A DNA stretch of 64,000 nucleotides from Dehalococcoidia bacterium. GTDB lineage: Bacteria; Chloroflexota; Dehalococcoidia; Dehalococcoidales; BS750m-G39. Location: contig JASFHK010000004.1 in the NCBI GenBank assembly GCA_050123275.1, forward strand, positions 25,577-89,576, given 5' to 3'. Positions 29,289 through 61,278 of this stretch are shown one piece after another. The translations under genes and the position numbers were made by a program. The notes beneath the pieces are model-generated. The model was given only the letters and a program-made list of their open reading frames with translations, was not told where the DNA came from and searched no databases. Numbering within the stretch: the stretch's first letter is position 1; every line of letters starts with the position of its first letter.

Positions 29289-30455
29289 TCAGTCGCGGTT
29301 TCTCAACAGGAAGAAGGTGCAAACCAGCGCTGTCCCCGCCATCACCGCCCCGGCCACGGTGAAGCTGGTGGCGAAGCCATATTTATCGGCAATGAAGCCC
29401 AGCACCGGCGCGCTTAAGCCGATGCCGCCCCGGCTGGCGAAATAGTAAACGCCCAGTATCGTGGAGCGGTAGCGCGCGGGGGCGCGGCTGATAATTTGCA
29501 GCTCGGTGACGGGCATGGAGAGATACATGCACATGCCGAGCAGGAGCAGCACCAGCCAGATGCTCCAGCCCAGAGAGGCGAACTGGAGCAGGTAGATGGC
29601 CGGGCCGGCGATGAGGCCGGCCGTGATGATAACCGGCTTGGTGCCCAGCCTGTCGGAGAGATAGCCGCCGGCGGGGCCCGCCCAGAGCCCGGCGAAGTGG
29701 AAAAGCGAGAAGAGAAAAGCGCCGGTGTCGGCGCTGGCGTTGAGGTTGTCCACGGCGTAGAGCGCGATGTAATAGGTCACCCCCATGAGCAGCATCTGGA
29801 GAGCCACCCCCAGACCGATGTAGGGTATCAGGCTGCGCACGCTGCTGTGGGCTTCGCTTTCCTCGGGTTCGGAGTTGTTGGCTACCAGCGGGGCTTTGGG
29901 AGCGTAGCCGCGCCGGGTGAGGACGACAAAGAGCACGATACCGATAATGAAGACGGGTATGGCCATGCTGACCACCGTCCAGCGCCAGCTGAGCGTCTGG
30001 AAGAGGGCGGCGGCGATGAGCGGAGTCAGGAAAAAGCTGGCCGTGCCGCCTATCTGGTGCAAACCCAGGGCGCTGCCCCGGTCTCTTTTGTCCACCAGCG
30101 TCGAGACCAGTGGGGAGGCGGCGGGGTGATAGCCCCCGCCCATTATGCCCAGCATGACCATAAAGACAACCATCAGGATATAGCCGGGGGCAAGGCCGGC
30201 CAGTATGGAGAATAGCGCCGCCCCGGAGATGCCCATCAGAATCATGAGGCGGGGGCCGAGGCGGTCGGAGAGCCAGCCCGAGGGCAGGTGGCTGACGCCG
30301 TAGCTGATGTTGTAGGCGGACATTATCCAGCCGACCTGATTATAGTCGAGGGAAAATTCGTCGCGGATGAAGGGGGTGAGGGGTTGGAAAATGGCCGCCG
30401 TAAAGTGGTGGCTGAAATGGGCCAGCATGAAAAGGGGCAAAAGCCCCGAAATCAT
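29289..30455 (-). CDS. MFS transporter
   Basis: 388 aa, about 12 TM segments, with an MFS loop motif SDRLGPR repeated as SDRLGTK in the second half. Confidence 0.8.
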   Translation of the reverse strand: MISGLLPLFMLAHFSHHFTAAIFQPLTPFIRDEFSLDYNQVGWIMSAYNISYGVSHLPSGWLSDRLGPRLMILMGISGAALFSILAGLAPGYILMVVFMVMLGIMGGGYHPAASPLVSTLVDKRDRGSALGLHQIGGTASFFLTPLIAAALFQTLSWRWTVVSMAIPVFIIGIVLFVVLTRRGYAPKAPLVANNSEPEESEAHSSVRSLIPYIGLGVALQMLLMGVTYYIALYAVDNLNASADTGAFLFSLFHFAGLWAGPAGGYLSDRLGTKPVIITAGLIAGPAIYLLQFASLGWSIWLVLLLLGMCMYLSMPVTELQIISRAPARYRSTILGVYYFASRGGIGLSAPVLGFIADKYGFATSFTVAGAVMAGTALVCTFFLLRNRD

Positions 30456-30517
30456 GGAGAGGAATCTCGGCTTCTTGATGACAGTTTCTTTCTCCGCTTA
30501 TTCGGTCTAGATGAGTA

Positions 30518-30607
<90 letters not shown>

Positions 30608-30618
30608 GTTATAGTTTA

Positions 30619-30709
30619 TGGCGGAGAGGGTGGGATTCGAACCCACGCTCCGGAATAACCGGAGACCGCTTTTCGAGAGCGGCACCATAAACCACTCGGA
30701 CACCTCTCC
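30619..30709 (-). tRNA. tRNA-Ser (anticodon CGA), CCA encoded
   Basis: Hand-folded: same acceptor and T arms as the neighbour, anticodon arm CCGCT-CTCGAAA-AGCGG, long variable arm TCTCCGGTTATTCCGGAGC. Confidence 0.9.
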
Positions 30710-30722
30710 ATATAGCTTTCCG

Positions 30723-30750
30723 ATTATACCAAAAGTTGTGGCTGGGGCAA
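30723..30750 (-). promoter_or_regulatory. Promoter candidate for the tRNA-Ser pair
   Basis: Minus strand reads TTGCCC, 16-nt spacer, (TGg)TATAAT with an extended -10. The -10 lies about 13 nt upstream of the tRNA 5' end. Confidence 0.45.
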
Positions 30751-30822
30751 AGTCGTTGGTGCATTGTTGGAGGGGGGATTACTTATGAAGGCACGTTTTG
30801 TGCATTTAAACTAAGAACTTCT

Positions 30823-31251
30823 TTAGGTGTGCCTATGTTGAAATTTATACACCTGGGATTTTATACGGTTCACAACATCGTCAAGATTTTTGGCTATCTG
30901 AACGTCGGTGAACCTCATTACAGTGTATCCCATGTCTTCTAGCAAATGGGTGTTCCTCTTGTCCCTATCGACATTCTTTTGGATTTTTTGTTGCCAGTAG
31001 GGAGGCATTTTCAGTAACCGCTCAAGGGACAGCTTTTTGCCATGCCAGAAGGCACCATCTATAAAAACTATAACTTTTGCTCGTGTGAAGACAATATCAG
31101 GCCGTCCGGGAAGCGGCTTAAAGTCTTTGCGGTATCGTAGTCCATCGGCCCAGAGTTTCTTTCGAAGGGCAATTTCAGGGGCAGTGTCCTTGCTTTTTAT
31201 TCTGGACATTACCCAACTACGTTTTTCTGGTGGGTATGTGTCCTGAGTCAT
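30823..31251 (-). CDS. vsr: Very-short-patch repair endonuclease
   Basis: RSWVMSRIKSKDTAPE, LPGRPDIVF and FIDGAFWHG align with the E. coli Vsr motifs. Confidence 0.9.
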   Translation of the reverse strand: MTQDTYPPEKRSWVMSRIKSKDTAPEIALRKKLWADGLRYRKDFKPLPGRPDIVFTRAKVIVFIDGAFWHGKKLSLERLLKMPPYWQQKIQKNVDRDKRNTHLLEDMGYTVMRFTDVQIAKNLDDVVNRIKSQVYKFQHRHT

Positions 31252-31253
31252 AG

Positions 31254-32183
31254 CTAGCTAAGTTTTATCTGCAGCATTCCGTAGTCAGTTTCGCATTCTT
31301 CGACTATTTTGTTATATTTCCGAATTAGTTCAACAACAGTAGTGTCGCGCTTATCAGGTAAAAATCTACTTATTTCATAGATATTCATGGCAATAAATTG
31401 TTCAATGTCAAAAAAGTCCACTCTGCCTTCTATACCGAGCGGTTTTGCTAAGCTTTGTCCTGAAACAACGCCTACCGCCGATGTAACTATTATCGGCTTC
31501 AGATGGGAATTCAAATTGTCAGCGCACTTTCTTAGCAGCATTTCAGTTGGAGTAGCGGTCACATGAATAACTACGTCGCCAATAATGAAGTCTCCGGCTC
31601 GTGCATTGGCTTCATCTTTAACTGAAAAGCCACACGACTGTATTTGGTTATCCGGTAGAGCCAAAGTTAGCTTAGCGCCAACAAGATGCTGCATTAAAGC
31701 GCCTTGGAACATGGTTCCTTGGTTTTCGCGTTGTCTAGCCTCAGCTTGGTTGAGCAAGTCGCGAACAACGTAGGCAATCGATTTTGATGGGTCAGCACGG
31801 AACTTGAACGGCCTGCCAGCAAAAAACTCCTTTACGCGGTCTACCCACCAGCTTTCAACGAAAGGCAGATCTATAACTGAAATTTCGTTCTGCTGGTTAA
31901 GGAATTTAACATATTTCTCCATCAAAGCGAGACTGCCGCGACTAGTGCGACCGCCTTCTGCCGCTAATATTTGGGTTACTCCATGCTCATTAAGTATTTT
32001 TTGCACGGAGCTTCTACCGAGACCTTTGACTTGGCCTTGCCCTTCGGTTTTCATAGTTCTTGAATCTAGCGGGAGTCCTTTGTCTCTGGCCTCGCGAGTT
32101 ACGACAAGTACTACGGACAGATCACCTTTGCCGCTAACGTATTGCTTCTTGAATTTTTGTAAAGACTCTTGGATTGTCGGCAT
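31254..32183 (-). CDS. Putative type II restriction endonuclease (cognate of the adjacent Dcm methyltransferase)
   Basis: 309-aa low-GC ORF between dcm and vsr. Its start overlaps the dcm 3' end by 50 nt. I recognise no nuclease motif with certainty, so the call rests on position. Confidence 0.5.
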   Translation of the reverse strand: MPTIQESLQKFKKQYVSGKGDLSVVLVVTREARDKGLPLDSRTMKTEGQGQVKGLGRSSVQKILNEHGVTQILAAEGGRTSRGSLALMEKYVKFLNQQNEISVIDLPFVESWWVDRVKEFFAGRPFKFRADPSKSIAYVVRDLLNQAEARQRENQGTMFQGALMQHLVGAKLTLALPDNQIQSCGFSVKDEANARAGDFIIGDVVIHVTATPTEMLLRKCADNLNSHLKPIIVTSAVGVVSGQSLAKPLGIEGRVDFFDIEQFIAMNIYEISRFLPDKRDTTVVELIRKYNKIVEECETDYGMLQIKLS

Positions 32184-33255
32184 GCGCCCTCCTTGCTAAG
32201 GGTAGCAGTAGGTGTTCTGTTAAAAATCGGGTGACGGGTAGGGCTACGGCGTCACCCATCGCATTGTAGCCGCTATTATAGTCACCGGGGATAGAATATG
32301 AATCGGGCAATCCCATTAATCTCGCTGCTTCCCGTACTGTTAATAAGCGTGTTTTTAATTCGCCATTAACTGAAATGACTATGAACTCGCGGCTACTTCC
32401 ACCATTAGCTGTCCTTAGGCAACCTGAAATATCGTCAGTGCGTATCTCAAGCACTTGTTTTTTCCCCCTGATGCGCTTGTATCCGGGGAATACCCGTAAC
32501 CCTTGCGTAAGAGCCTGCTTTAGCTTTGCCATGTGCTTAGGTGGTATCAATGCCAAGAGTTTCTTTGTTTGCTCACTTGTGTGAAGTGGAGCGTCGTATT
32601 CAATAACGTCGGATAGCTTTAGCGTTCGGGGTGGCGGCGTTTGCAGGCTCCACCAGATAACTTCTGTAAGACCATCTACCGCTCGTCTCAAAGCCTCAGG
32701 GTGTAGCCAATTTGGGGCGTCATCTGTTAAGCCATCCAAATTCACATCAGTTCTGACGCCTAAAACGAATATCCGTTTGCGTGATTGGGGGAGCCACCTT
32801 AGGGCGTCAAGCTGTAAAGGTCCTACTTGGTAATTACGTCCGGTCAATGCTTGGTGCAGAGTGCGGTAGTTATTGCCTCTGCTAGTTGAGGTTAGCCCTG
32901 AAACATTTTCTACCACAACTATCGGGGGGCGAGTAGGCATTTCATCCATTATCTTAAGCCAAGTCCATACCAAGCCGCTTCTATTCCCGTTTATACCTTG
33001 CTGCTTACCCGCTAGCGACAAATCCTGACATGGAAAACTAGCCCAGGAAACGTCTGCCTGCGGAAGGTTCTGCCCCGAGAAGTTCTGTAATGGCCCGAGG
33101 TAGAAAGAATATGGGTCTTGATTAGCCAAGTAAACTTCAGCTTTCTTTGGTGAGATGTCGTTAGCCCAAGCTGTATGGAAATAAGGTTTTACCCCTTCTG
33201 TAACTAGGCCGCTTCCTGCAAAAAAGTCTAGGAATTCATAAAGCTCAGGCGACAT
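32134..33255 (-). CDS. dcm: DNA (cytosine-5)-methyltransferase
   Basis: Motifs I FAGSG, IV SFPCQDLS, VI ENV, VIII QSRKR, IX REAARLMGLPDSY and X GDAV occur in canonical order. Confidence 0.92.
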   Translation of the reverse strand: MSPELYEFLDFFAGSGLVTEGVKPYFHTAWANDISPKKAEVYLANQDPYSFYLGPLQNFSGQNLPQADVSWASFPCQDLSLAGKQQGINGNRSGLVWTWLKIMDEMPTRPPIVVVENVSGLTSTSRGNNYRTLHQALTGRNYQVGPLQLDALRWLPQSRKRIFVLGVRTDVNLDGLTDDAPNWLHPEALRRAVDGLTEVIWWSLQTPPPRTLKLSDVIEYDAPLHTSEQTKKLLALIPPKHMAKLKQALTQGLRVFPGYKRIRGKKQVLEIRTDDISGCLRTANGGSSREFIVISVNGELKTRLLTVREAARLMGLPDSYSIPGDYNSGYNAMGDAVALPVTRFLTEHLLLPLARRAHADNPRVFTKIQEAIR

Positions 33256-33471
33256 AGGCTCTCACTCTCCGATGGTGTCCGTGTAATTATATCATATAAG
33301 TATTGGGGAAGGGTGCTAAACAAGAAAAACGGAAGTAATATTTTGCTAACCTTTTGCTAACGTATGAAAACAGACGGGGGTAATACGGCATCGTATTTAC
33401 GCAAAGTCACCACTATATTGACACTGAACGGAGCAAGTGATAACTTTGTTTGAGTCTGAAAGTAGGCTGAT

Positions 33472-34920
33472 ATGTTCAGTGTTGTGATGAAAAAGCTGGC
33501 CTTACTAGCGGTTATCGTGGTGCTGCTACAGCTCACTGCGGCCATTCCGGCGCGGGCCCAGTCCGAAGACGAGGTTAGGGTCAAGCAGCTCAACTTCGTC
33601 TTCCTGCACGGGGCGGGGGGCAACCCCTGTTCCATGCAGCTTCTCTCCGACACCATCCTGGAGAATATAGAGCCTTACATCGCCGCCTACGAAGCCGCCA
33701 ACCCCGGCATCGATATTCAGGTTGACGTCATGAACCGCTGTTACCCCAACGATGTCGACATGAGGACCTGGGCCAACAACATCGCCGACAGCGTCGGGCG
33801 CCACTTTTCCGGTAAGCGGAACATCATACTGGTCGGGCACAGCGCCGGCGGCAAGGCCGCCCTCTATGCCGTGGCTAACAACGTCAGCGGCATCACGGAT
33901 AAGGTGGCTATGGTGGTGACCATCAACAGCCCGATTAAAGCCATGGGGGGCTATTACGCTACCGGCGGCACTTCCGTGGCTGATTTCTGCCGCGTCCGCT
34001 GGCTGGCCGGGGACGCGGGCATCTGCGACTCGGTGGCCAACTACGACAGCTCCGATGACGGCGCCTGGGTGGCGCAGAACAAGCACTGGCTGGCTTTCAT
34101 CTCGGGTGAATCGGCTCCCTCCAGCGCCCAGTTCGGTTTCGGCGGCGTTGACGGCTGGCCCCGGGATATGGACGACGGCATCGTGCCCATGTCGGCGCAG
34201 TATTCCGACGCCGCCGACGTGGTCTATTACGGGGAGCATGGGCACGGCGATTTTGAGGTGTCGGAGGCAATCTCAGAGAATCTCGCGGAACAGATACTGA
34301 CCTATATTTTCGGCGGGACTATCTATTGCTCGCATTTCGTCCGCGAGGGCGCTTTCGAGCACAAGGCCAACTGGTTTTTGGGCACGGATTACTGGGACGA
34401 GGTCAAGGGCGGCGTTCTGGTCGACAGCGGGCGCCTGGAAAACGCCAATGGTTCCTTTTTCTTCTGGGAAGATTGGAAAGAGGTGGTGGGGGATTGCCCC
34501 GAAGGGAGCCTGCGCAGTAACTTCACCGTCGAGGCGGTGGACCCCTTTCTTTTCTTTACCAGCGTCGTCGAGTCGAGGTGGTTCCAGGCCGACGACCCCG
34601 ACGATTGCCGCCTCTACATACACAGCCGCTCCGCGCCCCGTAATACCGTTAAGGTGGACTGGAAGATTTACCGCCAGGGGACGTTGCCCGATGGGCTCGA
34701 GCGCGACCATTATGAGGTCGAGATAATCACAGGCACGCCGTTGACCAGCATACCCTACGTTTCCTGGCTTAACGACGACCCCAGCGACGTGAGAATACGC
34801 GTGGTTTCCGAAGCGGAGAGCCCTTTCCGCTGGTTCGAGGCGGAGTGGCGGCTCTATGCCAAGCAACCCAGGGAAAGGCAGATTATCGAAGAGCTTATGC
34901 TCGACCCGCTGGCGTCCTAG
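33472..34920 (+). CDS. Secreted alpha/beta-hydrolase (lipase/esterase-like) with an about 200-aa C-terminal domain of unknown function
   Basis: Signal peptide MKKLALLAVIVVLLQLTAAIPARAQS, oxyanion region FVFLHGAGG, and nucleophile elbow GHSAGG. Confidence 0.7.
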   Translation: MFSVVMKKLALLAVIVVLLQLTAAIPARAQSEDEVRVKQLNFVFLHGAGGNPCSMQLLSDTILENIEPYIAAYEAANPGIDIQVDVMNRCYPNDVDMRTWANNIADSVGRHFSGKRNIILVGHSAGGKAALYAVANNVSGITDKVAMVVTINSPIKAMGGYYATGGTSVADFCRVRWLAGDAGICDSVANYDSSDDGAWVAQNKHWLAFISGESAPSSAQFGFGGVDGWPRDMDDGIVPMSAQYSDAADVVYYGEHGHGDFEVSEAISENLAEQILTYIFGGTIYCSHFVREGAFEHKANWFLGTDYWDEVKGGVLVDSGRLENANGSFFFWEDWKEVVGDCPEGSLRSNFTVEAVDPFLFFTSVVESRWFQADDPDDCRLYIHSRSAPRNTVKVDWKIYRQGTLPDGLERDHYEVEIITGTPLTSIPYVSWLNDDPSDVRIRVVSEAESPFRWFEAEWRLYAKQPRERQIIEELMLDPLAS

Positions 34921-50469: not shown

Positions 50470-51480
50470 TCACCGTTTGGCTTTAGCCATTTTTTCCTTT
50501 TTGCGTAGCGCCTCGCGCCGCGCCTGGAGCTTGGCCAGTTTTTGCTGGGTGTAGTCTTCCATGAGCTGGCCGAACTCGCAGCTGGCGCAGGTAAAGAGGT
50601 TGGAGCAGACGCGGTGGGAGACATCGCCCTTGAGGGTGTAGCGGCAAAGGCGCTGGCTGCCCGGTAGCTCCTTGAATTTCTCGGCGATTTCGTCCATCTG
50701 GGGGACGTTACCGCTGGCCATCAGCTCCTGCATCTCCTGGTCGAAGGCGCAGCTCAGGCAATCGTAGTCGCGCGTACAGAGACGGTAGGGAACCAGCCCC
50801 ATCTTCATCCAGAGGCACTGCCTGGGCTTTATCGGGGTAGCGGCTGTATCGGGTTTGACCTCGGGCTCGGCCATGGCTACCTTGGCTTTTCTTATCCAGA
50901 CCCTGGCTTCTATGTTGCCCGGGGCGACGACCAGAATAGCCTGCAGCTCTCTCAGCGCCTCGGCGTAGCGGCCGGCTTCGAAGTGAGCCTTGCCCTTCTT
51001 GAGGTAGACCGGAATCTCTTCCGGGGCGATGGTTACCGGCTCGATAACCTCTTTCTCCTCGATTACGGGCGGCTCGACCTTGGCTTCTGGCGGCTTTTGC
51101 TTGGGCTCAATCTTGACCTGGACGGGGCCCAGCGTCTTGCGGAGCAGCGATTCCATCTCGTCGAGCTTAAAGGGCTTGGACAGGTAGTCGATGGCGCCCA
51201 CCTTCATCGCCTCTACGGCCGTATCCACCGAAGGGTAGGCGGTGATGATGATGCCGTTTATCTTCGGGTTCTTCTGCCTGGCTTCCCGGAGCACCTCGAG
51301 CCCGTTCTTGCCGGGCAGTTTCATGTCGAGGATGAGCAGGCTGAACTCGCGCTCTTTCATCGACTTGAGCGCCGCTTCGCCGTGCTCGGCGGTCTCGACC
51401 AGGTAGCCTTCATCGTGGAGCCAGTCGCGCAGGGATTCCCTCATGATGGTTTCGTCTTCTACAATCAGTATCGGTTCCAT
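50470..51480 (-). CDS. Response-regulator receiver + TPR-like linker + extended Cys module (two C-x5-C-x2-C motifs)
   Basis: Receiver ILIVEDE..ILDMKLPGKNG..ITAY and a helical AEALRELQAIL segment. The C-terminus is CLWMKMGLVPYRLCTRDYDCLSCAFDQE...LPGSQRLCRY...VCSNLFTCASC. The likely start is MEPILIV at 51480; the ORF track extends to 51555. Confidence 0.8.
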   Translation of the reverse strand: MEPILIVEDETIMRESLRDWLHDEGYLVETAEHGEAALKSMKEREFSLLILDMKLPGKNGLEVLREARQKNPKINGIIITAYPSVDTAVEAMKVGAIDYLSKPFKLDEMESLLRKTLGPVQVKIEPKQKPPEAKVEPPVIEEKEVIEPVTIAPEEIPVYLKKGKAHFEAGRYAEALRELQAILVVAPGNIEARVWIRKAKVAMAEPEVKPDTAATPIKPRQCLWMKMGLVPYRLCTRDYDCLSCAFDQEMQELMASGNVPQMDEIAEKFKELPGSQRLCRYTLKGDVSHRVCSNLFTCASCEFGQLMEDYTQQKLAKLQARREALRKKEKMAKAKR

Positions 51481-51544
51481 TTTGTTGCCTCCTTGGCTTT
51501 GTTGTCTACCCTCTATACATGCAATTTTCTTGCCAAAGGAGGTT

Positions 51545-51850
51545 TTGCTTCCCACCCAATACCCACCCTACAGAGGTGTTACCTCTATATACTTCTCTTG
51601 TCGCCGCCCCACCCTGATTTTATCTATTCTCGCCTGTCACCCTTTAAGGTAAAGAGGGGCTCTGCCCCTCTTAAACACCACGTGTGAATTGGGGGATTCG
51701 AAGAGGGGACATATAAGGGGTTCCACCCTTATAGGGAGGGTTTTGGGTGGGAAAGAAAAACGTGCGCTGACAGGGTTATGGCTTTGAGATTGCTTCGTTG
51801 CGCTCGCAATGACAGTACGCGTGAAGCGCGCTCGCAATGACTGTGAAGTA
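51545..51850. repeat. Mosaic of repeats R1 (forward + inverted), R3 (inverted) and R2 (x2), filling a whole intergenic region
   Basis: R1 forward lies at 51548-51615 and R3 inverted at 51640-51679. R1 inverted lies at 51725-51785 (ggtgggaaagaaaaacgtgcgctgacagg). R2 lies at 51786-51813, with a partial second unit at 51818-51843. cttcccacccaatacccaccc (51548) is near-perfectly inverted at 51736-51762. Confidence 0.8.
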
Positions 51851-51863
51851 AAAAGGGAGCAGA

Positions 51864-53246
51864 CTAGCGCTTGCTGTCTACTTTCTTTACGCTTTTCGAG
51901 TTCCTGGCGTTAAGCCCGTAGGCCTTGGCTTTGTTGTAGAGCGTCATCCGCGAGATACCGAGCACTTTAGCCGCCTCGGTATAGTTGCCGCCGGTCTCGG
52001 CGAGCACTTCCTCGATGTGGCTTCTCTCCATCTCCTTGAGGTTCCGCGTCTTGGAGACGGCGTGATAGGGCTCTACGTTATTGGGGGAGATGTCGGTGAC
52101 ATCTATCTGGGTGCCCTTGGCCAGTATCACCGCCCTTTCCACCGCGTTTTCCAGCTCCCTTACGTTGCCGGGCCACTCGTATCTCATCATAAAAGCGTTG
52201 GCCTCGGAGGAAAAGCTGTTGATTTCCTTGCTGTTCTCGGTGGCGAACTTTTTGAGGAAGTACTGTGCCAGCAGGGGAATGTCCTCTTTTCTTTCCCGGA
52301 GCGAGGGTATTTCGATATTGACCACGTTCAAGCGGTAGTAGAGGTCCTCACGGAACTTGCCTTCGGCGATAGCCTTTTTCATGTCGCGGTTGGTCGCCGA
52401 GATGACCCTGACGTCCACCTTGATAAGCTCGTTGCCGCCGACGCGGGCGAACTCCTTTTCCTCAAGGACGCGGAGGAGGTGCACCTGGATATTGGAGCTC
52501 ATCTCGCCGATTTCGTCGAGGAAAAGGGTGCCGCGGTTGGCCGCCTCGAATTTGCCCTGCTTGCGGGCGTAGGCCCCGGTGAAGGCGCCTTTCTCGTGGC
52601 CGAAAAGCTCACTTTCGAGCAGGCTTTCGGGCAGAGCGGCGCAGCTCACGGCGATGAAAGGCTTGTCGGAGCGCAGGCTCTGGGCGTGAATGGCCTGGGC
52701 CACCAGTTCCTTGCCCGTGCCGGTCTCGCCGGTGATGAGCACGGTGGCGTTGCTCTTGCTGACCACCTTGATAATCTCGATTACCTGCTGCATGCGGGTG
52801 CTCTTGGCGATGATGTTTTCGAAGCGGAATCGCTTTTCCAGCTTCTGGTGCAGGGCGATGTTCTCTTCGATAAGCCCCTGGCGCTCGACAAGCTTTTCGA
52901 TGAGCAGCTCGGCTCTCTCCGGGCAGAAGGGCTTTTCTATGTAATCGTAGGCGCCTTCCCTCATGGCGGAGATGGCGGTGGGGATACTGCCGTAGGCGGT
53001 GATGATGATGACCGAGATGTCGGGGTCTATTTTCTTGACGGCTTTCATCAGGGCGATGCCGTCCATGCCCGGCATGACCAAATCGGTGATAACGATGCCG
53101 GGTTTCTCCATGCGTATAATTTTAAGCGCGGCTTCGCCGCTTTCGGCGGTGAGCACGTCGTGCCCCACGTCTTTCAGCCAGTCGCGGAGAGAGTCGCGGA
53201 CGATAGCTTCGTCGTCAATTACCAGAATCTTTACTTTTTTCTTCAT
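51864..53246 (-). CDS. Sigma-54-dependent two-component response regulator (NtrC family)
   Basis: Receiver (VITDLVMPGMDG), AAA+ domain with GETGTGKE, the sigma-54 contact loop EKGAFTGA and FLDEIGE, and a C-terminal Fis-type HTH AAKVLGISRMTLYNK. Confidence 0.92.
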   Translation of the reverse strand: MKKKVKILVIDDEAIVRDSLRDWLKDVGHDVLTAESGEAALKIIRMEKPGIVITDLVMPGMDGIALMKAVKKIDPDISVIIITAYGSIPTAISAMREGAYDYIEKPFCPERAELLIEKLVERQGLIEENIALHQKLEKRFRFENIIAKSTRMQQVIEIIKVVSKSNATVLITGETGTGKELVAQAIHAQSLRSDKPFIAVSCAALPESLLESELFGHEKGAFTGAYARKQGKFEAANRGTLFLDEIGEMSSNIQVHLLRVLEEKEFARVGGNELIKVDVRVISATNRDMKKAIAEGKFREDLYYRLNVVNIEIPSLRERKEDIPLLAQYFLKKFATENSKEINSFSSEANAFMMRYEWPGNVRELENAVERAVILAKGTQIDVTDISPNNVEPYHAVSKTRNLKEMERSHIEEVLAETGGNYTEAAKVLGISRMTLYNKAKAYGLNARNSKSVKKVDSKR

Positions 53247-55179
53247 GGCGCAGTGGTAGCGAGATGGTGAAAGTGCTACCCTTTCCTTCCTTGCTTTGCA
53301 CTTCGATTTTGCCCTGGTGGCGCTGGATGATGCCGTAGGCCACTGCCAGCCCCAGGCCTACCCCTTTACCCTTGCCCTTGGTGGTGAAAAAGGGGGTAAA
53401 AAGCTTGAGCTTGTCTTCCTCGGAGATGCCGTGCCCCGTGTCCTGTACCTCTATGTGGAGGTAGCTGCTGTCCGCCGAGGTGCGCACCGTGAGCACGCCG
53501 CCGTCGGGCATGGCCTGGATGGCGTTCATCACCAGGTTGGTGCATACCTGCTGGAGCTGGTCGAAGTCGGCCATGACGTTGGGCAGTTTGGGGTCGAGTC
53601 CCTTGGTTACCTCTATCCTTTGCAGCTCGGCGGAGTGGCCGGCCATGTCGAGGACGCGCTCGACCACCTCGTTGGCGTTTATCTCCCTGAGGCTGGGCTT
53701 TGACTGGCGGGCGAAGTCGAGCAGATTGCGAATCAGCTTGGTGCTGCGGGTAAGCTCGGTTTCCATTTTATTGAGATAGTCGGCGGCGGTATCCTTGGCG
53801 ATGCCGTCGCCGGCCAGTTTCTTGGCTAAAAGCTGGGTGTAGACCAGGACGCCCGCCAGCGGGTTGTTAACCTCGTGGGCGATGGAAGCCGCCATCTGCC
53901 CCAGTGAGGTCAACTTTTCCGCCTGGATTAGGTCCTGCTGGGTGTCCTTGAGGCGGCTGAGCACGTAGGGCCAGCACATGTCGGCCTCGGCCAGGTTCTG
54001 GCAGACGGCTGTCGCCAGCTCGCGGCAGGTCTCGTAGCCGCAGGCGCCGCAGTTTATCTGGTCGTTGGGGTCGGCTTTGCCCAGCTGCTTGAGCACGGCG
54101 TTGATATCCTGCTCGCTGGGGGTGGGCAGGCCGACGCTGCGGGTGGTGAAACGGCGGCTCAGGTCAATATCGGCGTATTCCTTGAGGTCTTTCTCGGCCT
54201 GGGCGGGGTCGGCCTGGCTCCGGGCGTAATCGATGAGGCGCTCCTTGCGCCGGAAGCCGCTCAAGTCGTTATCGATAACGGGCCCGTCGATACAGCCGTG
54301 GCAGAAGTGCAGGTTAATGAGACGGGTATCGATGTCGCCCTTGGCGAACTCGCGCAGTATCTTGGTCACGTATTCCTTACCGTGGGCGTTTATGGTCTCG
54401 TTTTTAATGATGTCGTCGGGCAGTTGCGCCGCCCGGAAAAGCCCCTTGGAGAGGGGGAAGAGCCGCCCCAGGTCGGATTTGGGACCGGAAAAGGCCTCTT
54501 CCTCTTCTTTTTCGGGGACGATTTTTTTGGCGGCGAACATCTCTTTAAGTTCGGCGAAGGTGAGCACGGCGTCGATAACGCCGGATACCTTTTCATCCTT
54601 GCTTTCCGCCTTCTTGGCCACGCAGGGGCCGATGAAGACCACCTTGGCCTTGGGGTTGTATTTCCATTTTATCAATCTACCCATGGCTATCATCGGCGAA
54701 ACGATGGGGGCCAGGTTGCCGATGAGCTGAGGGTAATACTTTTCGATGTAGGTCACCGCCGCCGGGCAGTTGGTGGAGAGTACGGGCTTGCCGGTGTACT
54801 TGGTAAAGAAGCGCGTGTATTCGCGGGCGATAAGCTCGGCGCCGAAAGCGTCTTCCATGACCTCGCTGAAGCCCAGCTTCTTGATGCCGGCCACCAGCTG
54901 GCCGGCCTTGCAACCGAGCAGGGCGGCGGGGAAGGATGAGGAAAGAACGGCGATAACGTTATCGGGGTTATCGGACAGCAGCTGCCAGGTGACGCCGATG
55001 TCGCTTTCCACCTGTTTCGCCTTGGGCACGCAGACCCGCAGGCACTTGCCGCAGACGATACAGCGTTCCTTAATTACCTGAGCCAGGCCGTCTTCGACCT
55101 TTATCGCCTTGCAGGGGCAGCCGCGGATACAGGCGTAACAGCGCTTGCATTTTTCCTTGTCGGTATAGACGATGCTCAT
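53215..55179 (-). CDS. Histidine kinase with ferredoxin + [FeFe]-hydrogenase-like + Fe-S-cluster sensor region
   Basis: N-terminal CKRCYACIRGCP / CIVCGKCLRVC. Hydrogenase-large-subunit-like motifs STNCPAAV, IGPCVAKKAE and HFCHGCIDGP, followed by CGACGYETCRELATAVC. HisKA SIAHEVNNPL and HATPase motifs N (LVMNAIQAM), G1 (DTGHGI) and G2 (GVGLGLAV). Confidence 0.85.
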   Translation of the reverse strand: MSIVYTDKEKCKRCYACIRGCPCKAIKVEDGLAQVIKERCIVCGKCLRVCVPKAKQVESDIGVTWQLLSDNPDNVIAVLSSSFPAALLGCKAGQLVAGIKKLGFSEVMEDAFGAELIAREYTRFFTKYTGKPVLSTNCPAAVTYIEKYYPQLIGNLAPIVSPMIAMGRLIKWKYNPKAKVVFIGPCVAKKAESKDEKVSGVIDAVLTFAELKEMFAAKKIVPEKEEEEAFSGPKSDLGRLFPLSKGLFRAAQLPDDIIKNETINAHGKEYVTKILREFAKGDIDTRLINLHFCHGCIDGPVIDNDLSGFRRKERLIDYARSQADPAQAEKDLKEYADIDLSRRFTTRSVGLPTPSEQDINAVLKQLGKADPNDQINCGACGYETCRELATAVCQNLAEADMCWPYVLSRLKDTQQDLIQAEKLTSLGQMAASIAHEVNNPLAGVLVYTQLLAKKLAGDGIAKDTAADYLNKMETELTRSTKLIRNLLDFARQSKPSLREINANEVVERVLDMAGHSAELQRIEVTKGLDPKLPNVMADFDQLQQVCTNLVMNAIQAMPDGGVLTVRTSADSSYLHIEVQDTGHGISEEDKLKLFTPFFTTKGKGKGVGLGLAVAYGIIQRHQGKIEVQSKEGKGSTFTISLPLRHEEKSKDSGN

Positions 55180-56281: not shown

Positions 56282-56383
56282 TTTTCTGTAAAAAAATTTT
56301 ACTACGCACTTGAAAAATTGTCAAGAAAGTTAACAAAAGGCAAATGTAAAACATCTTGACCGTAAAATCGGCATGTGTTAAGA

Positions 56384-56399
56384 TGGCAGCAGTGTAGCT
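56384..56399 (+). promoter_or_regulatory. Candidate sigma-54 (-24/-12) promoter of hdrL-hdrC-hdrB
   Basis: TGGCAG-cagtg-TAGCT has GG and GC at the canonical 10-nt spacing of TGGCAC-N5-TTGCW. It lies about 53 nt upstream of the GTG at 56452. It overlaps a sigma-70-like TTGACC-17-TAAGAT (56356-56384). Confidence 0.4.
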
Positions 56400-56451
56400 G
56401 TGACCCCTTACCCCCCCTCTCTTGGACCAATTAAGGAGAATAGGAGGCAAC

Positions 56452-59400
56452 GTGGAACCTAAGATTGGCGTATACATCTGTCATTGTGGGACTAACATTG
56501 CCGGGACGGTGGATGTGGGGGCGGTTACCGAGTTCGCCCGTACCTTGCCCGCGGTAGCCATTGCCCGGGATTACACCTATATGTGTTCCGACCCGGGGCA
56601 GGACCTTATCCGCCAGGATATCAAAGAACTGGGGCTTAATCGCATCGTGGTGGCTTCCTGTTCGCCGCTGATGCACGAACGGACCTACCGTCGGGTATGC
56701 CAGGAATCGGGCCTTAACCCCTATCTCTTCGAAATGGCCAATATCCGCGAGCACGTTTCCTGGATAACCGAGGACAAGGCGGCGGCTACCGAGAAAGCCA
56801 AAGCCCTGGTCAGCGCCGCCGTCAGGCGCGTTTACTACCAGGAGCCGCTGGAAACCAGAGAGGTCCCGGTTAACCCCAACACGCTGGTGGTGGGGGGTGG
56901 TGTGGCCGGCATCCAGGCCGCCCTGGAGATTGCCGATTCCAAACACAAAGTATATCTGGTGGAGAAGGAGCCCAGCGTCGGCGGGCACATGATACAGCTG
57001 GACAAGACCTTCCCCACTCTGGACTGTTCCGCCTGTATTCTGACCCCCAAGATGAGCCTGGTCGGCGCCCATCCCTATATCGAGCTGATGTCCTACAGCG
57101 AGGTGACCGGTGTCGAGGGCTACGTGGGTAACTTCAAGGTTCAGATAAACAAGAAAGCCCGCTACGTTGATGTTGATAAATGCACCGGCTGCGGCGAGTG
57201 TTCCCAGGTCTGCCCGGTTACGGTGCCTAACGAGTTCGACCTGGGCTTGGGCAACCGCAAGGCGATTTATCGCCCCTTCCCCCAGGCGGTACCCAACGCC
57301 TTTACCATAGACAAGAAGGGCTATCCGCCCTGCCGCGTCGCCTGCCCGGCAGGGGTTAACGCCCAGGGCTACGTCGCCCTTATCTCGCAGGGCAAGTTCA
57401 AGGAAGCCCTCGAGGTATTGCGGCGGACGATGCCCTTTGCCGGCGTTTGCGGCCGCGTTTGCACCCACCCCTGCGAGAGGGACTGCGAGCGGGGCAAGGT
57501 GGACGAGCCGGTTTCCATCCGCGCGCTGAAGCGCTTCATGGCCGACTACGAGTTGAGTGTGGGGCGAGAAAAGGCGGCGCCGGTGGAGAGGACTAAAGAA
57601 GACAAGGTAGCCGTCATCGGCTCGGGCCCGGCCGGGCTTGCCTGCGCCTACGACTTAATCCGGGAGGGCTACCCGGTTACCGTTTTCGAGGCCGCGCCCA
57701 AGACGGGCGGGCTGCTCCGCTACGGCATCCCCGAATACCGTCTGCCTGATAAGGTGCTGGATAACGAGGTCGGCTACCTGGAGGAGATGGGCATCGAGAT
57801 AAAGACCGGCCACGCCGTGAGGAAGTTCGAGGAGCTCTTCAACCAGGGCTACCAGGCGATATTCATGGCGGCGGGGGCGGGGGTAAGCCAGAAGATGGGC
57901 ATCCCCGACGAGGACGCCGAAGGCGCCCTGCACGCCCTCGATTTCCTGAACAAGGTTAACTCCGGCAAGAAGGTCAGCCTCGGCGAGAAAGTGGCCGTTA
58001 TCGGCGGCGGTAACGCCGCCATAGACTCGGCGCGGGTCGCCAGGCGGCTGGGCGTCAAGGAAGTTTCCATCGTCTATCGCCGTTCGCGCGAGGAAATGCC
58101 CGCCGTCAGCGACGAGATTAACGAGGCCGAGCGGGAAGGCATCAAGTTGCACATACTGGCGGCGCCGGCCAAGGTCATCGCCGAGGATGGCAAGGTGACC
58201 GGCCTCCAGTGCATCAAGATGGAGCTGGGCGAGCCCGACGCCAGCCGGCGCCGGCGCCCGATACCGGTTGAAGGCTCCGAGTTCGAGATGGAGGTGGACA
58301 ACGTCATCTTCGCCGTGGGGCAGGGAGTGAACAAGGAAGCGCTGCCCGGCGAGCTGGAGTACACGGGGTGGGGTACCGTGGTCGTTGACCCCGCCACCCT
58401 CCAGACCAACATCGAGGGCGTTTTCGCCGGCGGGGACGTGGTTTCGGGCCCCTCCGACGTTATCGCCGCCGTCGCCGCGGGCAAGGAAGCCGCGATGTCC
58501 ATCGACCGTTTCCTGCGGGGAGTCGACCTCAAAGAGGGTCGCCCCGTTCCCATAACCAAAGCCACGGATATCCCCAAGGAGGACGTCCAGGCCAAGCTGC
58601 GGCAGGAGATGCCCACCCTGGACGTCAGCAAGCGGCAGGGCTTCGCCGAAGTCGAACTGGGCCTGGACGAGAAGACGGCCATGGAGGAGGCCAAGCGCTG
58701 CCTGAACTGCGGCGTTTGCTCGGAATGTATGGAGTGCCTCAAAGCCTGCCAGGTCGGGGCCATCAACCAGGATATGATCGAGGAGACCATCGAGGTCGAT
58801 GTGGGCAACATCATCGTCGCCACCGGCTACGATACCTTCGACCCCACCCCTCTCTACCAGTACGGCTACGGGCGGCTGGATAACGTCCTTACCTCGCTGG
58901 AGTTCGAGAGGATGATTAACGCCTCGGGCCCCACGTCGGGCGACGTGCTGCTCAAGGACGGCTCCCATCCCAAGACGGTGGGTATCATCCACTGCGTGGG
59001 CAGCCGCGACGAGAACTATCACGAGTACTGCTCGCAGGTCTGCTGCATGTACTCGATGAAACTAAGCCACCTGATAAGAGACCACGTGCCCGGCTCTCAG
59101 GTCTACGAGTTCTATATCGACCTGCGCTGCGTGGGTAAAGCTTTCGAGGAGTTTTACAACCGCGTCCTCGACGAGGGGACCATGTTCATCCGCGGGCGCC
59201 CCGGCGAGGTGACCGATATCGCCGAGACTCCCGAAGAAGAGGGCAAGCTCATCATCGTCGGCGAGGACACCCTGGTCGGACGCCAGCGCCGCGTGCCGGT
59301 GGACATGGTGGTGCTGAGCACGGCCTTGCAACCCCAGCCGGACGCCGATAAGGTCGCCCACCTCTTCTCCATCAGCCGCAGCGCCGACGGCTTCTTCCTG

Positions 59401-59793
59401 GAGAAGCATCCCAAGCTCGACCCTGTGGCCACCATGAGCGACGGTATTTTCGTCGTCGGCTGCTGCCAGTCGCCCAAGGATATTCCCAACAGCGTGGCAC
59501 AGGCGTCGGCGGCGGCGGCCAGGGCGCTGGCGATGATTAGCGCCGGCTCCATAGAAATCGAAGCGGCTACCTCCGAGGTTGACCCCGAGCTTTGCTCCGG
59601 CTGTAAGACTTGCTCCGATCTTTGCCCCTTCCACGCCATATCATTTGACGAAGAGAAGAAGATAAGTATAATAAATGAGACGCTATGCAAGGGCTGCGGC
59701 GTTTGCGTCGCCGCCTGCCCCAGCGGCGCCATCAAGGGCAAGCACTTTACCGCCGACGAGCTTTTGGCCGAGATAGAAGGGGCGCTGGTATAA
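56452..59793 (+). CDS. hdrL: HdrA-like flavoprotein with inserted GltD/NfnB-type NAD(P)H:FAD module (HdrL-type)
   Basis: N-terminus KIGVYICHCGTNIAG and FAD fold VVGGGVAGIQAAL. The insertion carries PFAGVCGRVCTHPCERDCERG, VIGSGPAGLACAYDL, VIGGGNAAIDSARVA and FAGGDVV. The HdrA signature CVGSRDENYHEYCSQVCC and four ferredoxin-type Cys motifs are present. GTG start behind AGGAGAATAGGAGG; the ORF track begins 30 nt earlier. Confidence 0.85.
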   Translation: MEPKIGVYICHCGTNIAGTVDVGAVTEFARTLPAVAIARDYTYMCSDPGQDLIRQDIKELGLNRIVVASCSPLMHERTYRRVCQESGLNPYLFEMANIREHVSWITEDKAAATEKAKALVSAAVRRVYYQEPLETREVPVNPNTLVVGGGVAGIQAALEIADSKHKVYLVEKEPSVGGHMIQLDKTFPTLDCSACILTPKMSLVGAHPYIELMSYSEVTGVEGYVGNFKVQINKKARYVDVDKCTGCGECSQVCPVTVPNEFDLGLGNRKAIYRPFPQAVPNAFTIDKKGYPPCRVACPAGVNAQGYVALISQGKFKEALEVLRRTMPFAGVCGRVCTHPCERDCERGKVDEPVSIRALKRFMADYELSVGREKAAPVERTKEDKVAVIGSGPAGLACAYDLIREGYPVTVFEAAPKTGGLLRYGIPEYRLPDKVLDNEVGYLEEMGIEIKTGHAVRKFEELFNQGYQAIFMAAGAGVSQKMGIPDEDAEGALHALDFLNKVNSGKKVSLGEKVAVIGGGNAAIDSARVARRLGVKEVSIVYRRSREEMPAVSDEINEAEREGIKLHILAAPAKVIAEDGKVTGLQCIKMELGEPDASRRRRPIPVEGSEFEMEVDNVIFAVGQGVNKEALPGELEYTGWGTVVVDPATLQTNIEGVFAGGDVVSGPSDVIAAVAAGKEAAMSIDRFLRGVDLKEGRPVPITKATDIPKEDVQAKLRQEMPTLDVSKRQGFAEVELGLDEKTAMEEAKRCLNCGVCSECMECLKACQVGAINQDMIEETIEVDVGNIIVATGYDTFDPTPLYQYGYGRLDNVLTSLEFERMINASGPTSGDVLLKDGSHPKTVGIIHCVGSRDENYHEYCSQVCCMYSMKLSHLIRDHVPGSQVYEFYIDLRCVGKAFEEFYNRVLDEGTMFIRGRPGEVTDIAETPEEEGKLIIVGEDTLVGRQRRVPVDMVVLSTALQPQPDADKVAHLFSISRSADGFFLEKHPKLDPVATMSDGIFVVGCCQSPKDIPNSVAQASAAAARALAMISAGSIEIEAATSEVDPELCSGCKTCSDLCPFHAISFDEEKKISIINETLCKGCGVCVAACPSGAIKGKHFTADELLAEIEGALV

Positions 59794-59830
59794 GCCGGCC
59801 CCGTTAACCTTAAATAAAGGAGGAGTCTAA

Positions 59831-60412
59831 ATGGCTGACACGGTGGTCAAAACTCCTCCCGCCGTAGTGACGGACTTTCTTAACGAGGTCTGCTCCATAC
59901 CCGGCGGCGAGGCGATTAATTCTTGTATTCAATGCGGGGTGTGTACCGGCTCCTGTCCCACCGCCAACCAGTGGGACTACCCGCCGCGGCGGGTCATCGC
60001 CATGGTGCGGGCCGGTTTGAGGGACGAGTTACTGTCGAGCAACTCGATGTGGTTCTGCGTTTCCTGCTACACCTGCACGGTGCGCTGCCCGCGGGATATC
60101 AAGCCCGCCGATATCATGCACGCTCTGGAGATTATCTCTCTCCGCAGCGGCAAGAGCACCCGCCGCAACCGCACGCCGATTATGTACCAGTGCTTCGTCG
60201 ATTCCGCCCGTAAATACGGCCGGGTCTACGAGATGGGAATGATGATTAATCTTTTCATGAAGACCAACCCCTTCTCCGCCCTCAAGCTGGCGCCGTTGGG
60301 GATGGGGCTGTTTTTCCACAAACGCATGCCCCTGAGCCCCGAACGAATCAAGGGCATGGACGGCCTCAAAGCCATCCTCAAGAAAGCCAGGGAACTGGGA
60401 GGTGCCGAATAA
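59831..60412 (+). CDS. hdrC: Heterodisulfide reductase subunit C-like (2x[4Fe-4S])
   Basis: CIQCGVCTGSCP and CVSCYTCTVRCP, 193 aa. Confidence 0.85.
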   Translation: MADTVVKTPPAVVTDFLNEVCSIPGGEAINSCIQCGVCTGSCPTANQWDYPPRRVIAMVRAGLRDELLSSNSMWFCVSCYTCTVRCPRDIKPADIMHALEIISLRSGKSTRRNRTPIMYQCFVDSARKYGRVYEMGMMINLFMKTNPFSALKLAPLGMGLFFHKRMPLSPERIKGMDGLKAILKKARELGGAE

Positions 60413-61278
60413 TGAAACACTACACATACTATCCCGGTTGTTCGGCGGAGGCAACGGCGTCGCCCCTGGGCATCTCGGTGCCCCCGGTGGCCAAGAAGCT
60501 GGAGATGGACCTTAACGAGCTTGAGGACTGGAACTGCTGTGGCTCGACGCCTTTCTGGTCGGTGGACAAGCTGGAGGCGGCGGCATTGGCCAGCCGCAAC
60601 CTGGCTCTGGCCGAAAAGCGGGGCTTCGACCTGGTGACGCCCTGCTCCAACTGCTTCGTCATCCTGCACGAGACCAATAACCACCTCAAGAGGCTGCCCG
60701 ATTTCAAGGACAAGGTGGACCAGGCGCTGGCGGCGGGCAAGATGAAATATAACGGCACCGTCAACGTGCGCCACCTCGCCGAGGTGCTCTACACCGATAT
60801 TACCCCCGAAGGCATCGCCGAAAAGGTAACCAAGCCCTTAAAGGGTCTCAAGGTGGGCGCTTACTACGGCTGCCAGCTGGTGCGCCCCGACGGCTTCGAC
60901 GACCCCGAATCCCCCCACTCGCTGGACGAGATAATCACCGCGCTGGGCGCCGAGGCCGTTGACTGGGAGATGAAGGCCCGCTGCTGCGGCAGCTCGCTGG
61001 TCATGCCCGAACAGGAAGTGGCGCTGGGGCTGGTCAACAAGCTGCTCCGCAACGCCACCGAGCACGGGGCCGAGTGCCTGATTACTCCCTGCCCATTGTG
61101 CCAGATTAACCTCGACGCCTATCAGAGCCTGGTTAACAGCCAGTTCAAAACGCGCTATAATATACCCGTACTTTTTGTTACCCAACTGATAGGGGTCGCG
61201 CTGGGTATTCCCGCCAACGAGCTGGCTTTATCGGGTAATATCGTCTCTCCGATGAAGGTGTTAGCCCCCTATCTCTAG
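60412..61278 (+). CDS. hdrB: Heterodisulfide reductase subunit B-like (two CCG domains)
   Basis: WNCCGST ... TPCSNCF and ARCCGSS ... TPCPLCQ. 1-nt overlap with the hdrC stop. Confidence 0.88.
   Translation: MKHYTYYPGCSAEATASPLGISVPPVAKKLEMDLNELEDWNCCGSTPFWSVDKLEAAALASRNLALAEKRGFDLVTPCSNCFVILHETNNHLKRLPDFKDKVDQALAAGKMKYNGTVNVRHLAEVLYTDITPEGIAEKVTKPLKGLKVGAYYGCQLVRPDGFDDPESPHSLDEIITALGAEAVDWEMKARCCGSSLVMPEQEVALGLVNKLLRNATEHGAECLITPCPLCQINLDAYQSLVNSQFKTRYNIPVLFVTQLIGVALGIPANELALSGNIVSPMKVLAPYL

Follow-up and report, generated by a model that had tools for sequence, protein, structure and literature searches.

A histidine kinase gene in a 64,000-nucleotide stretch of DNA from Dehalococcoidia bacterium (GenBank assembly GCA_050123275.1, contig JASFHK010000004.1, positions 25,577 to 89,576; hereafter the window) raises the question of whether an [FeFe]-hydrogenase-like domain, joined to a kinase in one polypeptide, holds an H-cluster and reports H2. 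Since 2016, [FeFe]-hydrogenases of group C have been described as H2 sensors, largely on account of their PAS domains and nearby regulators. To our knowledge, nobody has demonstrated their signalling output. By its sequence features, the window protein is a putative sensory hydrogenase module of group C (HydS-type), in a variant that lacks PAS and is fused directly to the kinase. The module most likely reports H2 to that kinase, and we put the probability of this reading at roughly 0.5. A fusion in one protein would allow a clean autophosphorylation assay, with or without H2 and with or without the [2Fe] cofactor, of whether and how group C enzymes sense H2.

Domain architecture and group C character

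The open reading frame (ORF) of the kinase starts with an ATG one base past the stop codon of the upstream gene and is preceded by an AAGGAG ribosome-binding site. Pfam assigned residues 4-50 to Fer4_10 (dicluster ferredoxin), residues 76-300 to Fe_hyd_lg_C (E=6.1e-49; 167 bits against a cut-off of 22 bits), residues 374-403 to PF04060 ("FeS", iron-sulfur), residues 426-492 to HisKA, and residues 538-644 to HATPase_c. No PAS domain was detected by Pfam in the full 654-residue protein. The two ferredoxin motifs, C11-x2-C14-x2-C17-x3-C21 and C40-x2-C43-x2-C46-x3-C50, contain eight cysteines that showed little or no variation among 120 close homologs and 150 representatives.

In a phmmer search against PDB sequences, the N-terminal 260 residues aligned with TmHydA, T. 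kivui HydA1, Acetobacterium HydA1, DdH, and CpI. An AlphaFold2 (AF2) model of the kinase, built on 45 homologs, had a mean predicted local distance difference test (pLDDT) score of 86.9, with values of 88-98 across most of the sensor. When this model was compared with the PDB using Foldseek, the top matches were the [FeFe]-hydrogenases DdH, CpI, TkHydA, and CbA5H (E of approximately 1e-20 over 420-450 aligned columns); the ZraS kinase core ranked after them. As modelled, the sensor matches the [FeFe]-hydrogenase fold far above chance. The best hydrogenase model in NCBIfam was TIGR04105, at 178 bits against a cut-off of 450 bits.

A preliminary description of the window, made from the sequence alone, stood up to these searches. 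The ORF it had called was exact (minus strand, 654 aa), both of its ferredoxin cysteine motifs were recovered, and its Fe-hydrogenase domain lay within that fold, not outside it. The direct fusion to HisKA/HATPase without PAS was seen both in Pfam and in the AF2 model. The C-x2-C-x4-C-x7-C-x8-C module that it had placed behind the H-domain is present (C377-x2-C380-x4-C385-x7-C393-x8-C402), but it is not an extra one: it is the Cx2Cx4Cx16C motif standard in groups C and D, with C393 added. Since C393 is specific to the clade, the conserved ligand set is Cx2Cx4Cx16C.

In the AF2 model, one continuous helix (residues 403-456) begins directly after C402 and bears the phospho-acceptor H435. H435, N552, D580xGxG, F597, and the G608-L-G-L box were invariant; the H, N, G1, F, and G2 boxes are all present. 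The kinase half matched the cytoplasmic domain of ZraS with an E of 6e-42, and the kinase is predicted to be catalytically complete.

Enzymes of the sensory groups C and D have an N-terminal pair of [4Fe-4S] motifs and a C-terminal Cx2Cx4Cx16C motif, have lost Cys299 (CpI numbering, as below) and other proton-pathway residues, and have M353 and M497 replaced (PMC8163306, PMC10055695). In sensory enzymes, M353 is Gly in approximately 51% and Cys299 is Ala in approximately 43%, otherwise Pro, Ser, or another residue (PMC10055695). The window protein has the H-domain fold, the four H-cluster cysteines with the K358 equivalent, the cysteine motifs, a lost C299, and a small residue at M353; what it lacks of the group C pattern is a PAS domain after the C-terminal cluster. 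The placement in group C is based on these shared derived features. Gly184 occupies the M353 position, where Ser or Thr is conserved in group D, and therefore points to group C rather than group D. The likeness to HydS-type enzymes raised in the preliminary description thus extends to the motifs, C299, M353, and the proton pathway.

Like the window protein, TmHydS of Thermotoga maritima (group C, M2f) has the [4Fe-4S] motif pair, the four H-cluster cysteines, and Cx2Cx4Cx16C (PMC10055695, PMC8163306). Both have Gly at M353, and the canonical proton pathway is absent from both. C299 is Ala in TmHydS but Asn in the window protein, and M497 is Ser but His, respectively; unlike TmHydS, the window protein has Ser-Ser at the A230/P231 equivalents and Asn at the E495 equivalent. 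TmHydS ends in a PAS domain without an output domain of its own, whereas the FeS motif of the window protein runs into the dimerization and phosphotransfer (DHp) and catalytic (CA) domains of the kinase. TamHydS of Thermoanaerobacter mathranii (group D, M2e) has no PAS domain and carries the same N- and C-terminal cluster motifs as the window protein, and kinase-like and regulator genes flank it (PMC8163306); it is not, however, fused to a kinase.

Group C1 of HydDB is labelled "histidine kinase-linked (putative)", with a histidine kinase coupled to a predicted sensor of H2 (PMC5037454). Published C1 examples have the kinase in a neighbouring gene (PMC6163223, PMC8542988), whereas the window protein has it in the same polypeptide; the likeness to C1 is confined to the kinase-linkage label. 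A study of Hydrogenedentota noted HATPase_c within C1 proteins and, in some C3 proteins, a kinase domain (PMC11406978). One preprint is the first to report group C hydrogenases from Chloroflexi, without giving detail. HoxBC of Ralstonia eutropha (HydDB group 2b) is described as a low-activity [NiFe] H2 sensor that acts through the histidine kinase HoxJ and the NtrC-type activator HoxA on hydrogenase genes (PMC5665086, PMC5037454). The analogy with the window system is functional only: metallocentre and fold are unrelated to those of the window kinase, and HoxBC and HoxJ are separate proteins joined via a PAS-like region.

Nar1/NARF proteins are eukaryotic H-domain homologs that keep the cubane cysteines without the [2Fe] subcluster. 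They have no two-cluster ferredoxin domain, no Cx2Cx4Cx16C motif, and no signalling output, and are told apart from the window protein by architecture. All 150 nearest representatives at the 50% cluster level carried the bacterial group C-type module, not a Nar1/NARF-type architecture.

A word-indexed protein search with the sensor half (residues 1-413) as the query returned more than 120 proteins of the same architecture at 65-80% identity, and the sources named for them were metagenome-assembled genomes of Dehalococcoidia, Dehalococcoidales, or Chloroflexota. In metagenomes, this variant from Dehalococcoidia is abundant. HMMER, run exhaustively on 1.84 billion cluster representatives, yielded 797 proteins at E<1e-30, the best 150 of which all spanned the whole sensor module including the C-terminal motif. 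Among the 150 nearest 50%-identity representatives, 137 continued for at least 60 aa past the module at the C-terminus and were sorted by output. The kinase was fused directly in 36 of the 137, the window protein included, and stood behind a further region in 11 (PAS in the three checked); approximately 55 had a TmHydS-like tail of about 170 aa with PAS only, and 17 had a sigma-54 activator AAA+ domain. Because so many outputs are attached to one module, it is a widely reused input cassette, and the direct kinase fusion is a sizeable subfamily, no singleton. The architecture is already visible in databases and mentioned in the literature, in which no biochemical study of a kinase-fused member was found. 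Scans of genomes and metagenomes yielded 66 distinct related loci. A scan of genome contigs with the full-length protein, whose patterns came partly from the kinase half, gave 76 unrelated kinases among 80 loci; the relevant ones were L001-L003 and L055.

Individual examples showed the same cassette (two Fer4 motifs, H-domain, and FeS motif) on GGDEF, GGDEF plus HD-GYP, methyl-accepting chemotaxis protein, and HisKA_3 outputs, on sigma-54 activator AAA+ domains with or without PAS, and on a hybrid kinase with two receivers (P0123, P0143, P0150, P0171, P0175, and P0224 within P0121-P0270). This range is wider than the HydDB labels C1, C2, and C3.

The putative H-cluster pocket and the maturase genes

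The three H-domain signatures were aligned residue by residue with solved [FeFe]-hydrogenases. STNCPAAV (residues 135-142) aligns on TSCCPAWV, with N137 at the proton-relay cysteine (C299) and C138 at the cluster ligand; GPCVAKKAE (residues 184-192) aligns on MPCTAKKFE; and NLHFCHGCIDG (residues 289-299) aligns on ELMACPGGCVNG. The alignment agrees with the preliminary description, which had read TSCCPxW as changed to STNCPAAV, MPCxxKxxE to GPCVAKKAE, and ExMxCxxGCxxG to HFCHGCIDGP. The H-cluster cysteines are C138, C186, C293, and C296, which align with the ligands of CpI and TmHydA and are invariant in the clade. K189 corresponds to K358 of CpI, S82 to S232, E192 to E361, and S161-P162 to S323-P324. 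The variant pocket residues are N137 (C299), G184 (M353), H291 (M497), and N289 (E495). The group A signatures TSCCPxW, MPCxxKxxE, and ExMxCxxGCxxG are not intact, nor is the group A proton pathway: C299 is replaced by N137, E279 by Tyr, and S319 by Ala, and E282 and R286 have no counterpart in the alignment.

Pocket conservation was compared between 120 close homologs and 150 divergent representatives. The four cluster cysteines, K189, E192, S82, S161-P162, and G184 were invariant or nearly so in both sets. The wider family had the consensus APSFP, [ST][ST]xCP, GPCxAKKxE, and [ED]xLxCxGCxxGP, from which the Dehalococcoidia clade differed at five sites. A230 is Ala in the wider family vs Ser in the clade; P231 is Pro vs Ser or Ala; C299 is Ala, Ser, Pro, or Thr vs Asn (minor Thr, His, and Ser); E495 is Glu or Asp vs Asn or Ser; and M497 is Leu vs His, Tyr, Cys, or Phe. 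His or Glu stands between the two P3 cysteines in the clade (H294 in the window protein). These residues co-varied in blocks, namely N137 with H291 and H294, N137 with Y291 and T163, and T137 with C291 and E294. All of the clade replacements were small or polar, and the equivalents of positions 137 and 291 flank the amine bridgehead in CpI (PMC10055695). Since the substitutions are small, polar, and co-varying, the pocket looks like a retuned and maintained site, not a decayed one; this pattern suggests, and does not prove, the presence of the cofactor. The clade shows that pocket residues can change on a retained scaffold, with Asn at C299 and His, Tyr, or Cys at M497.

A relative with the maturase genes was found at L087. 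Its kinase, P0125, is likewise a direct fusion, is 48% identical to the window protein, and is encoded on a 4.9-Mb chromosome downstream of hydG, hydE, and hydF, from which it is separated by an NfnAB/SudAB-like pair. The NCBIfam scores exceeded the cut-offs for HydG (341 vs 312 bits), HydE (348 vs 255 bits), and HydF (549 vs 326 bits). Because P0125 is clustered with these genes, at least part of the direct-fusion subfamily is, judging from gene order, genetically tied to H-cluster synthesis. The hydG ORF of L087 spans model positions 182-468 only, and may be truncated, split, or miscalled at its 5' end.

The preliminary description had cautioned that sequence alone cannot separate an H-cluster from a cubane, and this still holds. 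The choice between a bare cubane and a full H-cluster is narrowed, but not settled, by the pocket conservation, the hydGEF-linked relative, and the hydrogenase and Hdr neighbourhoods described below.

The sigma-54 circuit and the Hdr/Mvh neighbourhood

The kinase operon begins with a short sigma-54 paralog, followed by the kinase and an NtrC-type activator whose start overlaps the kinase stop (Table 1). The DNA-binding domain, helix-turn-helix (HTH), and RpoN box of the paralog are present; it scored 92 bits against TIGR02395, under the cut-off of 277 bits, and aligned with residues 144-339 of Aquifex RpoN. No core-binding domain was detected in the paralog, and a Pfam search of its N-terminal half at E up to 1 gave no credible family. 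The activator is intact. The paralog also lies upstream of the kinase in L081, L082, L083, L085, and other loci.

A sigma-54-type promoter, TGGCA-N6-TTGCA, lies downstream of a terminator-like hairpin region and was the single match to this pattern in the window. Across 30 related loci, it stands at the same place in 19 of the 21 that carry the paralog together with a full-length activator, and in none of the nine without the paralog; in five of these nine, such as L088, the activator lacks AAA+ and is reduced to REC and HTH_8. Because the three co-occur across loci, this distribution indicates that the predicted paralog, activator, and promoter work together.

The promoter precedes two genes for receiver (REC) proteins with a Cys-rich motif, whose fuller form is YRxC-x6-C-x2-C-x-F-x-Q ... 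LPG-x2-RLCRY. The true start of the first is likely the ATG at 51480, which has a ribosome-binding site. Pfam searches at E up to 1 gave no credible family for the Cys-rich C-termini of either protein; the motif may be an FeS or Zn module. A stand-alone copy of 90 aa was observed in L085 (13526-13798). Such a compact, self-contained sigma-54 circuit with receiver-fused redox proteins is of interest in its own right.

Two side observations were made on the downstream branch. The interval 51556-51863, between the activator gene and the sigma-54 promoter, contains GTCATTGCGAGCGC in two copies, along with several GC-rich hairpins, for example AAGAGGGGCAGAGCCCCTCTT; these elements are absent from the shorter spacers of relatives and may be repeats or terminators. 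At L081 (11931-14535), both the activator gene and the REC-TPR gene are broken up, each into two or three pieces, which reflects either frameshifts from assembly error or decay of this downstream part of the circuit.

An operon for HdrA with a GltD-like module, an HdrC-like protein, and an HdrB-like protein diverges from the kinase operon. HdrA(GltD)BC was immediately upstream of the cassette in 22 of the 42 related loci with enough upstream sequence, and most close relatives kept the HdrA(GltD) form at 71-85% identity, with 58% for L002. In at least four loci (L082, L108, L116, and L117), the cassette directly follows mvhD/G/A of the [NiFe] group 3c type and hycI, or remnants of these at a contig end; in L082, the order is HdrA(GltD), mvhD, mvhG, mvhA, and hycI. 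The clade would link the sensor with electron bifurcation of the Hdr/Mvh type in uncultured Dehalococcoidia, which are widespread.

The kinase operon and hdrA have back-to-back sigma-70-like promoters, and both sets of hexamers are conserved in L081 and L088. A sigma-54 promoter for hdrA was considered (TGGCAG-N5-TAGCT at 56385-56400); it is absent in L081 and L088, where the sigma-70-like hexamers are kept instead, and was treated as a chance match.

In a sister subclade (L123, L124, L126, and L137; 60-64% identity), the sigma-54 promoter stands ahead of three genes (L123, 4783-8647; L124, 13431-17275). The first encodes REC fused to a NuoE/HydC-like [2Fe-2S] protein, the second a NuoF/HydB-like flavoprotein, and the third REC fused to a 2Fe-2S/4Fe-4S module like the N-terminus of HydA or NuoG. 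The fusion of REC onto predicted bifurcation-type subunits suggests that the enzyme complexes are controlled by phosphorylation.

What the sensor may report, and other features of the window

If the module reports H2, the H-domain would hold an H-cluster in a pocket tuned for sensing, with no Cys299 relay, Gly at M353, and polar Asn and His residues by the amine bridgehead. Reaction with H2 would alter the H-domain and the relay clusters in redox state or in structure. The C-terminal FeS domain would relay this change, and autophosphorylation would be altered, in one direction or the other, through C402, which caps the helix with H435. The phosphate would pass from the kinase to the NtrC-type activator, which, together with the sigma-54 paralog of the same operon, would open the TGGCA-N6-TTGCA promoter. 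This promoter would drive the receiver/Cys-rich proteins, and the kinase may phosphorylate these too. The physiological target would be the machinery for H2 and low-potential electrons: HdrA(GltD)BC next to the cassette and, in relatives, the [NiFe]-hydrogenase Mvh.

Several points weigh against H2 sensing. We know of no group C enzyme that has been shown to signal in response to H2. Neither the window nor 713 kb of sequence from the 66 related loci (flanks of approximately 10 kb, a small fraction of each genome) contained hydE, hydF, or hydG; the other genes of the window are mostly housekeeping, and a search for literature on HydEFG in Dehalococcoidia found none. The clade alters A230, P231, E495, and the M497 site, which are conserved in its own wider family. 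Since the promoters of hdrA and the kinase operon are both sigma-70-like, the argument for hdr regulation by the sigma-54 system is one of synteny. In the kinase-bearing C1 proteins of Hydrogenedentota, the P1-P3 motifs were hardly recognisable, and the authors doubted H2 sensing (PMC11406978). The C-terminal cluster of TamHydS was unresponsive to H2 (PMC13104023), because of which the sensor may be coupled to the kinase by a conformational rather than a redox change of the C-terminal cluster.

The absent maturase genes and the four altered pocket positions would suit a cubane-only redox or O2 sensor, in which the Dehalococcoidia clade had lost the [2Fe] subcluster, like Nar1/NARF, and read whether its four [4Fe-4S] clusters are oxidized or still intact. 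Such a sensor would report ferredoxin or NAD(P)H poise, or O2, to adjust Hdr-type bifurcating modules. This explanation is tentative but has to be taken seriously: FeS-based sensor kinases such as NreB exist, the hydrogenases beside the cassette are [NiFe] (Mvh) and not [FeFe], and FeS, flavin, and receiver-fused redox modules make up the regulon (in the window the Cys-rich REC proteins, in L123 and L124 the REC-NuoE-like, NuoF-like, and REC-2Fe2S/4Fe4S proteins). However, the residues that only a [2Fe] subcluster calls for (the context of the bridging cysteine, the K358 and S232 equivalents, and a small M353) are invariant in a clade whose members are 57-80% identical. The small polar substitutions would not obviously fill the pocket, a close outgroup of the same architecture (P0125) is clustered with hydGEF, and flanks of approximately 10 kb reveal next to nothing about the remaining genome. 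A more elaborate proposal, which we consider doubtful, is a HydEFG-free module in which a bare or modified cubane in the Asn/His-relined pocket reports ferredoxin or redox poise, not H2. The kinase would then act transcriptionally, by a private shortened sigma-54 that has an activator and a promoter to itself, and post-translationally, by phosphorylating REC fused to FeS and flavin subunits, to switch electron-bifurcating Hdr, Mvh, and NuoEF-type complexes on or off.

It is improbable that N137, H291, and H294, which lie by the bridging cysteine, coordinate a metal ion, carry a modified cluster, or serve to bind CO or NO. We know of no precedent for a different ligand in such a pocket, and site 291 varies among His, Tyr, Cys, and Phe and site 137 among Asn, Thr, His, and Ser, which is not the pattern of obligatory metal ligands; yet the three clade-specific polar residues do cluster at the amine-bridgehead site of CpI. 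The positions were taken from PMC10055695. TmHydS and TamHydS keep a low H2 turnover (PMC10055695, PMC8163306), which would speak for the window protein being a working hydrogenase that mainly produces or takes up H2 and carries the kinase incidentally. This is very improbable, as the proton pathway is wholly missing (C299N, E279Y, and S319A, with E282 and R286 unaligned), other residues stand at M353 and M497, the neighbourhood encodes no partner subunits, and the protein is part of a two-component and sigma-54 cascade.

Table 1 Coordinates of the features discussed (window positions, except for the last row)
Feature	Position	Strand	Basis or remark
Sensor histidine kinase, 654 aa	53215..55179	-	ORF, Pfam, PDB alignments, AF2 and Foldseek
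Ferredoxin-like region, residues 11-50, two CxxCxxCxxxC motifs	55030..55149	-	Pfam Fer4_10
H-domain, residues 76-300	54280..54954	-	Pfam Fe_hyd_lg_C; alignment with TmHydA and Acetobacterium HydA1; conservation tables
C-terminal FeS motif, residues 374-403, C377-x2-C380-x4-C385-x16-C402	53971..54060	-	Pfam PF04060; conserved cysteines
Kinase core (DHp and CA)	53248..53970	-	AF2 secondary structure; invariant columns; ZraS, AtoS, and FixL matches
Short sigma-54 paralog, 366 aa	55181..56281	-	Pfam Sigma54_DBD, E=1e-21; first gene of the kinase operon
NtrC-type sigma-54 enhancer-binding response regulator (REC, AAA+ with GAFTGA, HTH_8)	51864..53246	-	Pfam, NCBIfam, translation
Sigma-54-type promoter TGGCAAGAAAATTGCA (-24 GG, -12 GC)	51520..51535	-	About 40 nt upstream of ATG 51480
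REC, TPR, and two copies of the Cys-rich motif (YRLC-x6-C-x2-C-x-F-x-Q)	50470..51480	-	Pfam REC and TPR only
REC and one copy of the Cys-rich motif, 204 aa	49779..50393	-	Pfam REC only; syntenic in relatives
Back-to-back sigma-70-like promoters	56296..56384		
Kinase operon promoter, TTGACA-17-TAAAAT	56324-56296	-	
hdrA promoter, TTGACC-17-TAAGAT	56356-56384	+	
Divergent HdrA operon (HdrA with GltD-like module, HdrC-like, HdrB-like)	56452..61278	+	Pfam
HdrA with inserted GltD-like Fer4_20 and Pyr_redox_2 NAD(P)H module, about 1113 aa	56452-59793	+	Pfam
HdrC-like protein	59831-60412	+	Pfam
HdrB-like CCG protein	60412-61278	+	Pfam
C-5 cytosine DNA methylase	32134-33255		In low-GC island
DUF4928 protein	31254-32183		In low-GC island
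L087 (GCA_020354555.1, CP070648.1): hydG, hydE, hydF, NfnAB/SudAB-like pair, hydrogenase-like kinase, REC protein, REC-PAS kinase	4133-12046		Gene order

Elsewhere in the window, a tyrosine recombinase gene was observed at 22056-22967. The GC content of positions 30001-34000 was 0.49-0.50, compared with approximately 0.60 elsewhere, and this region is probably an acquired island of the restriction-modification type.

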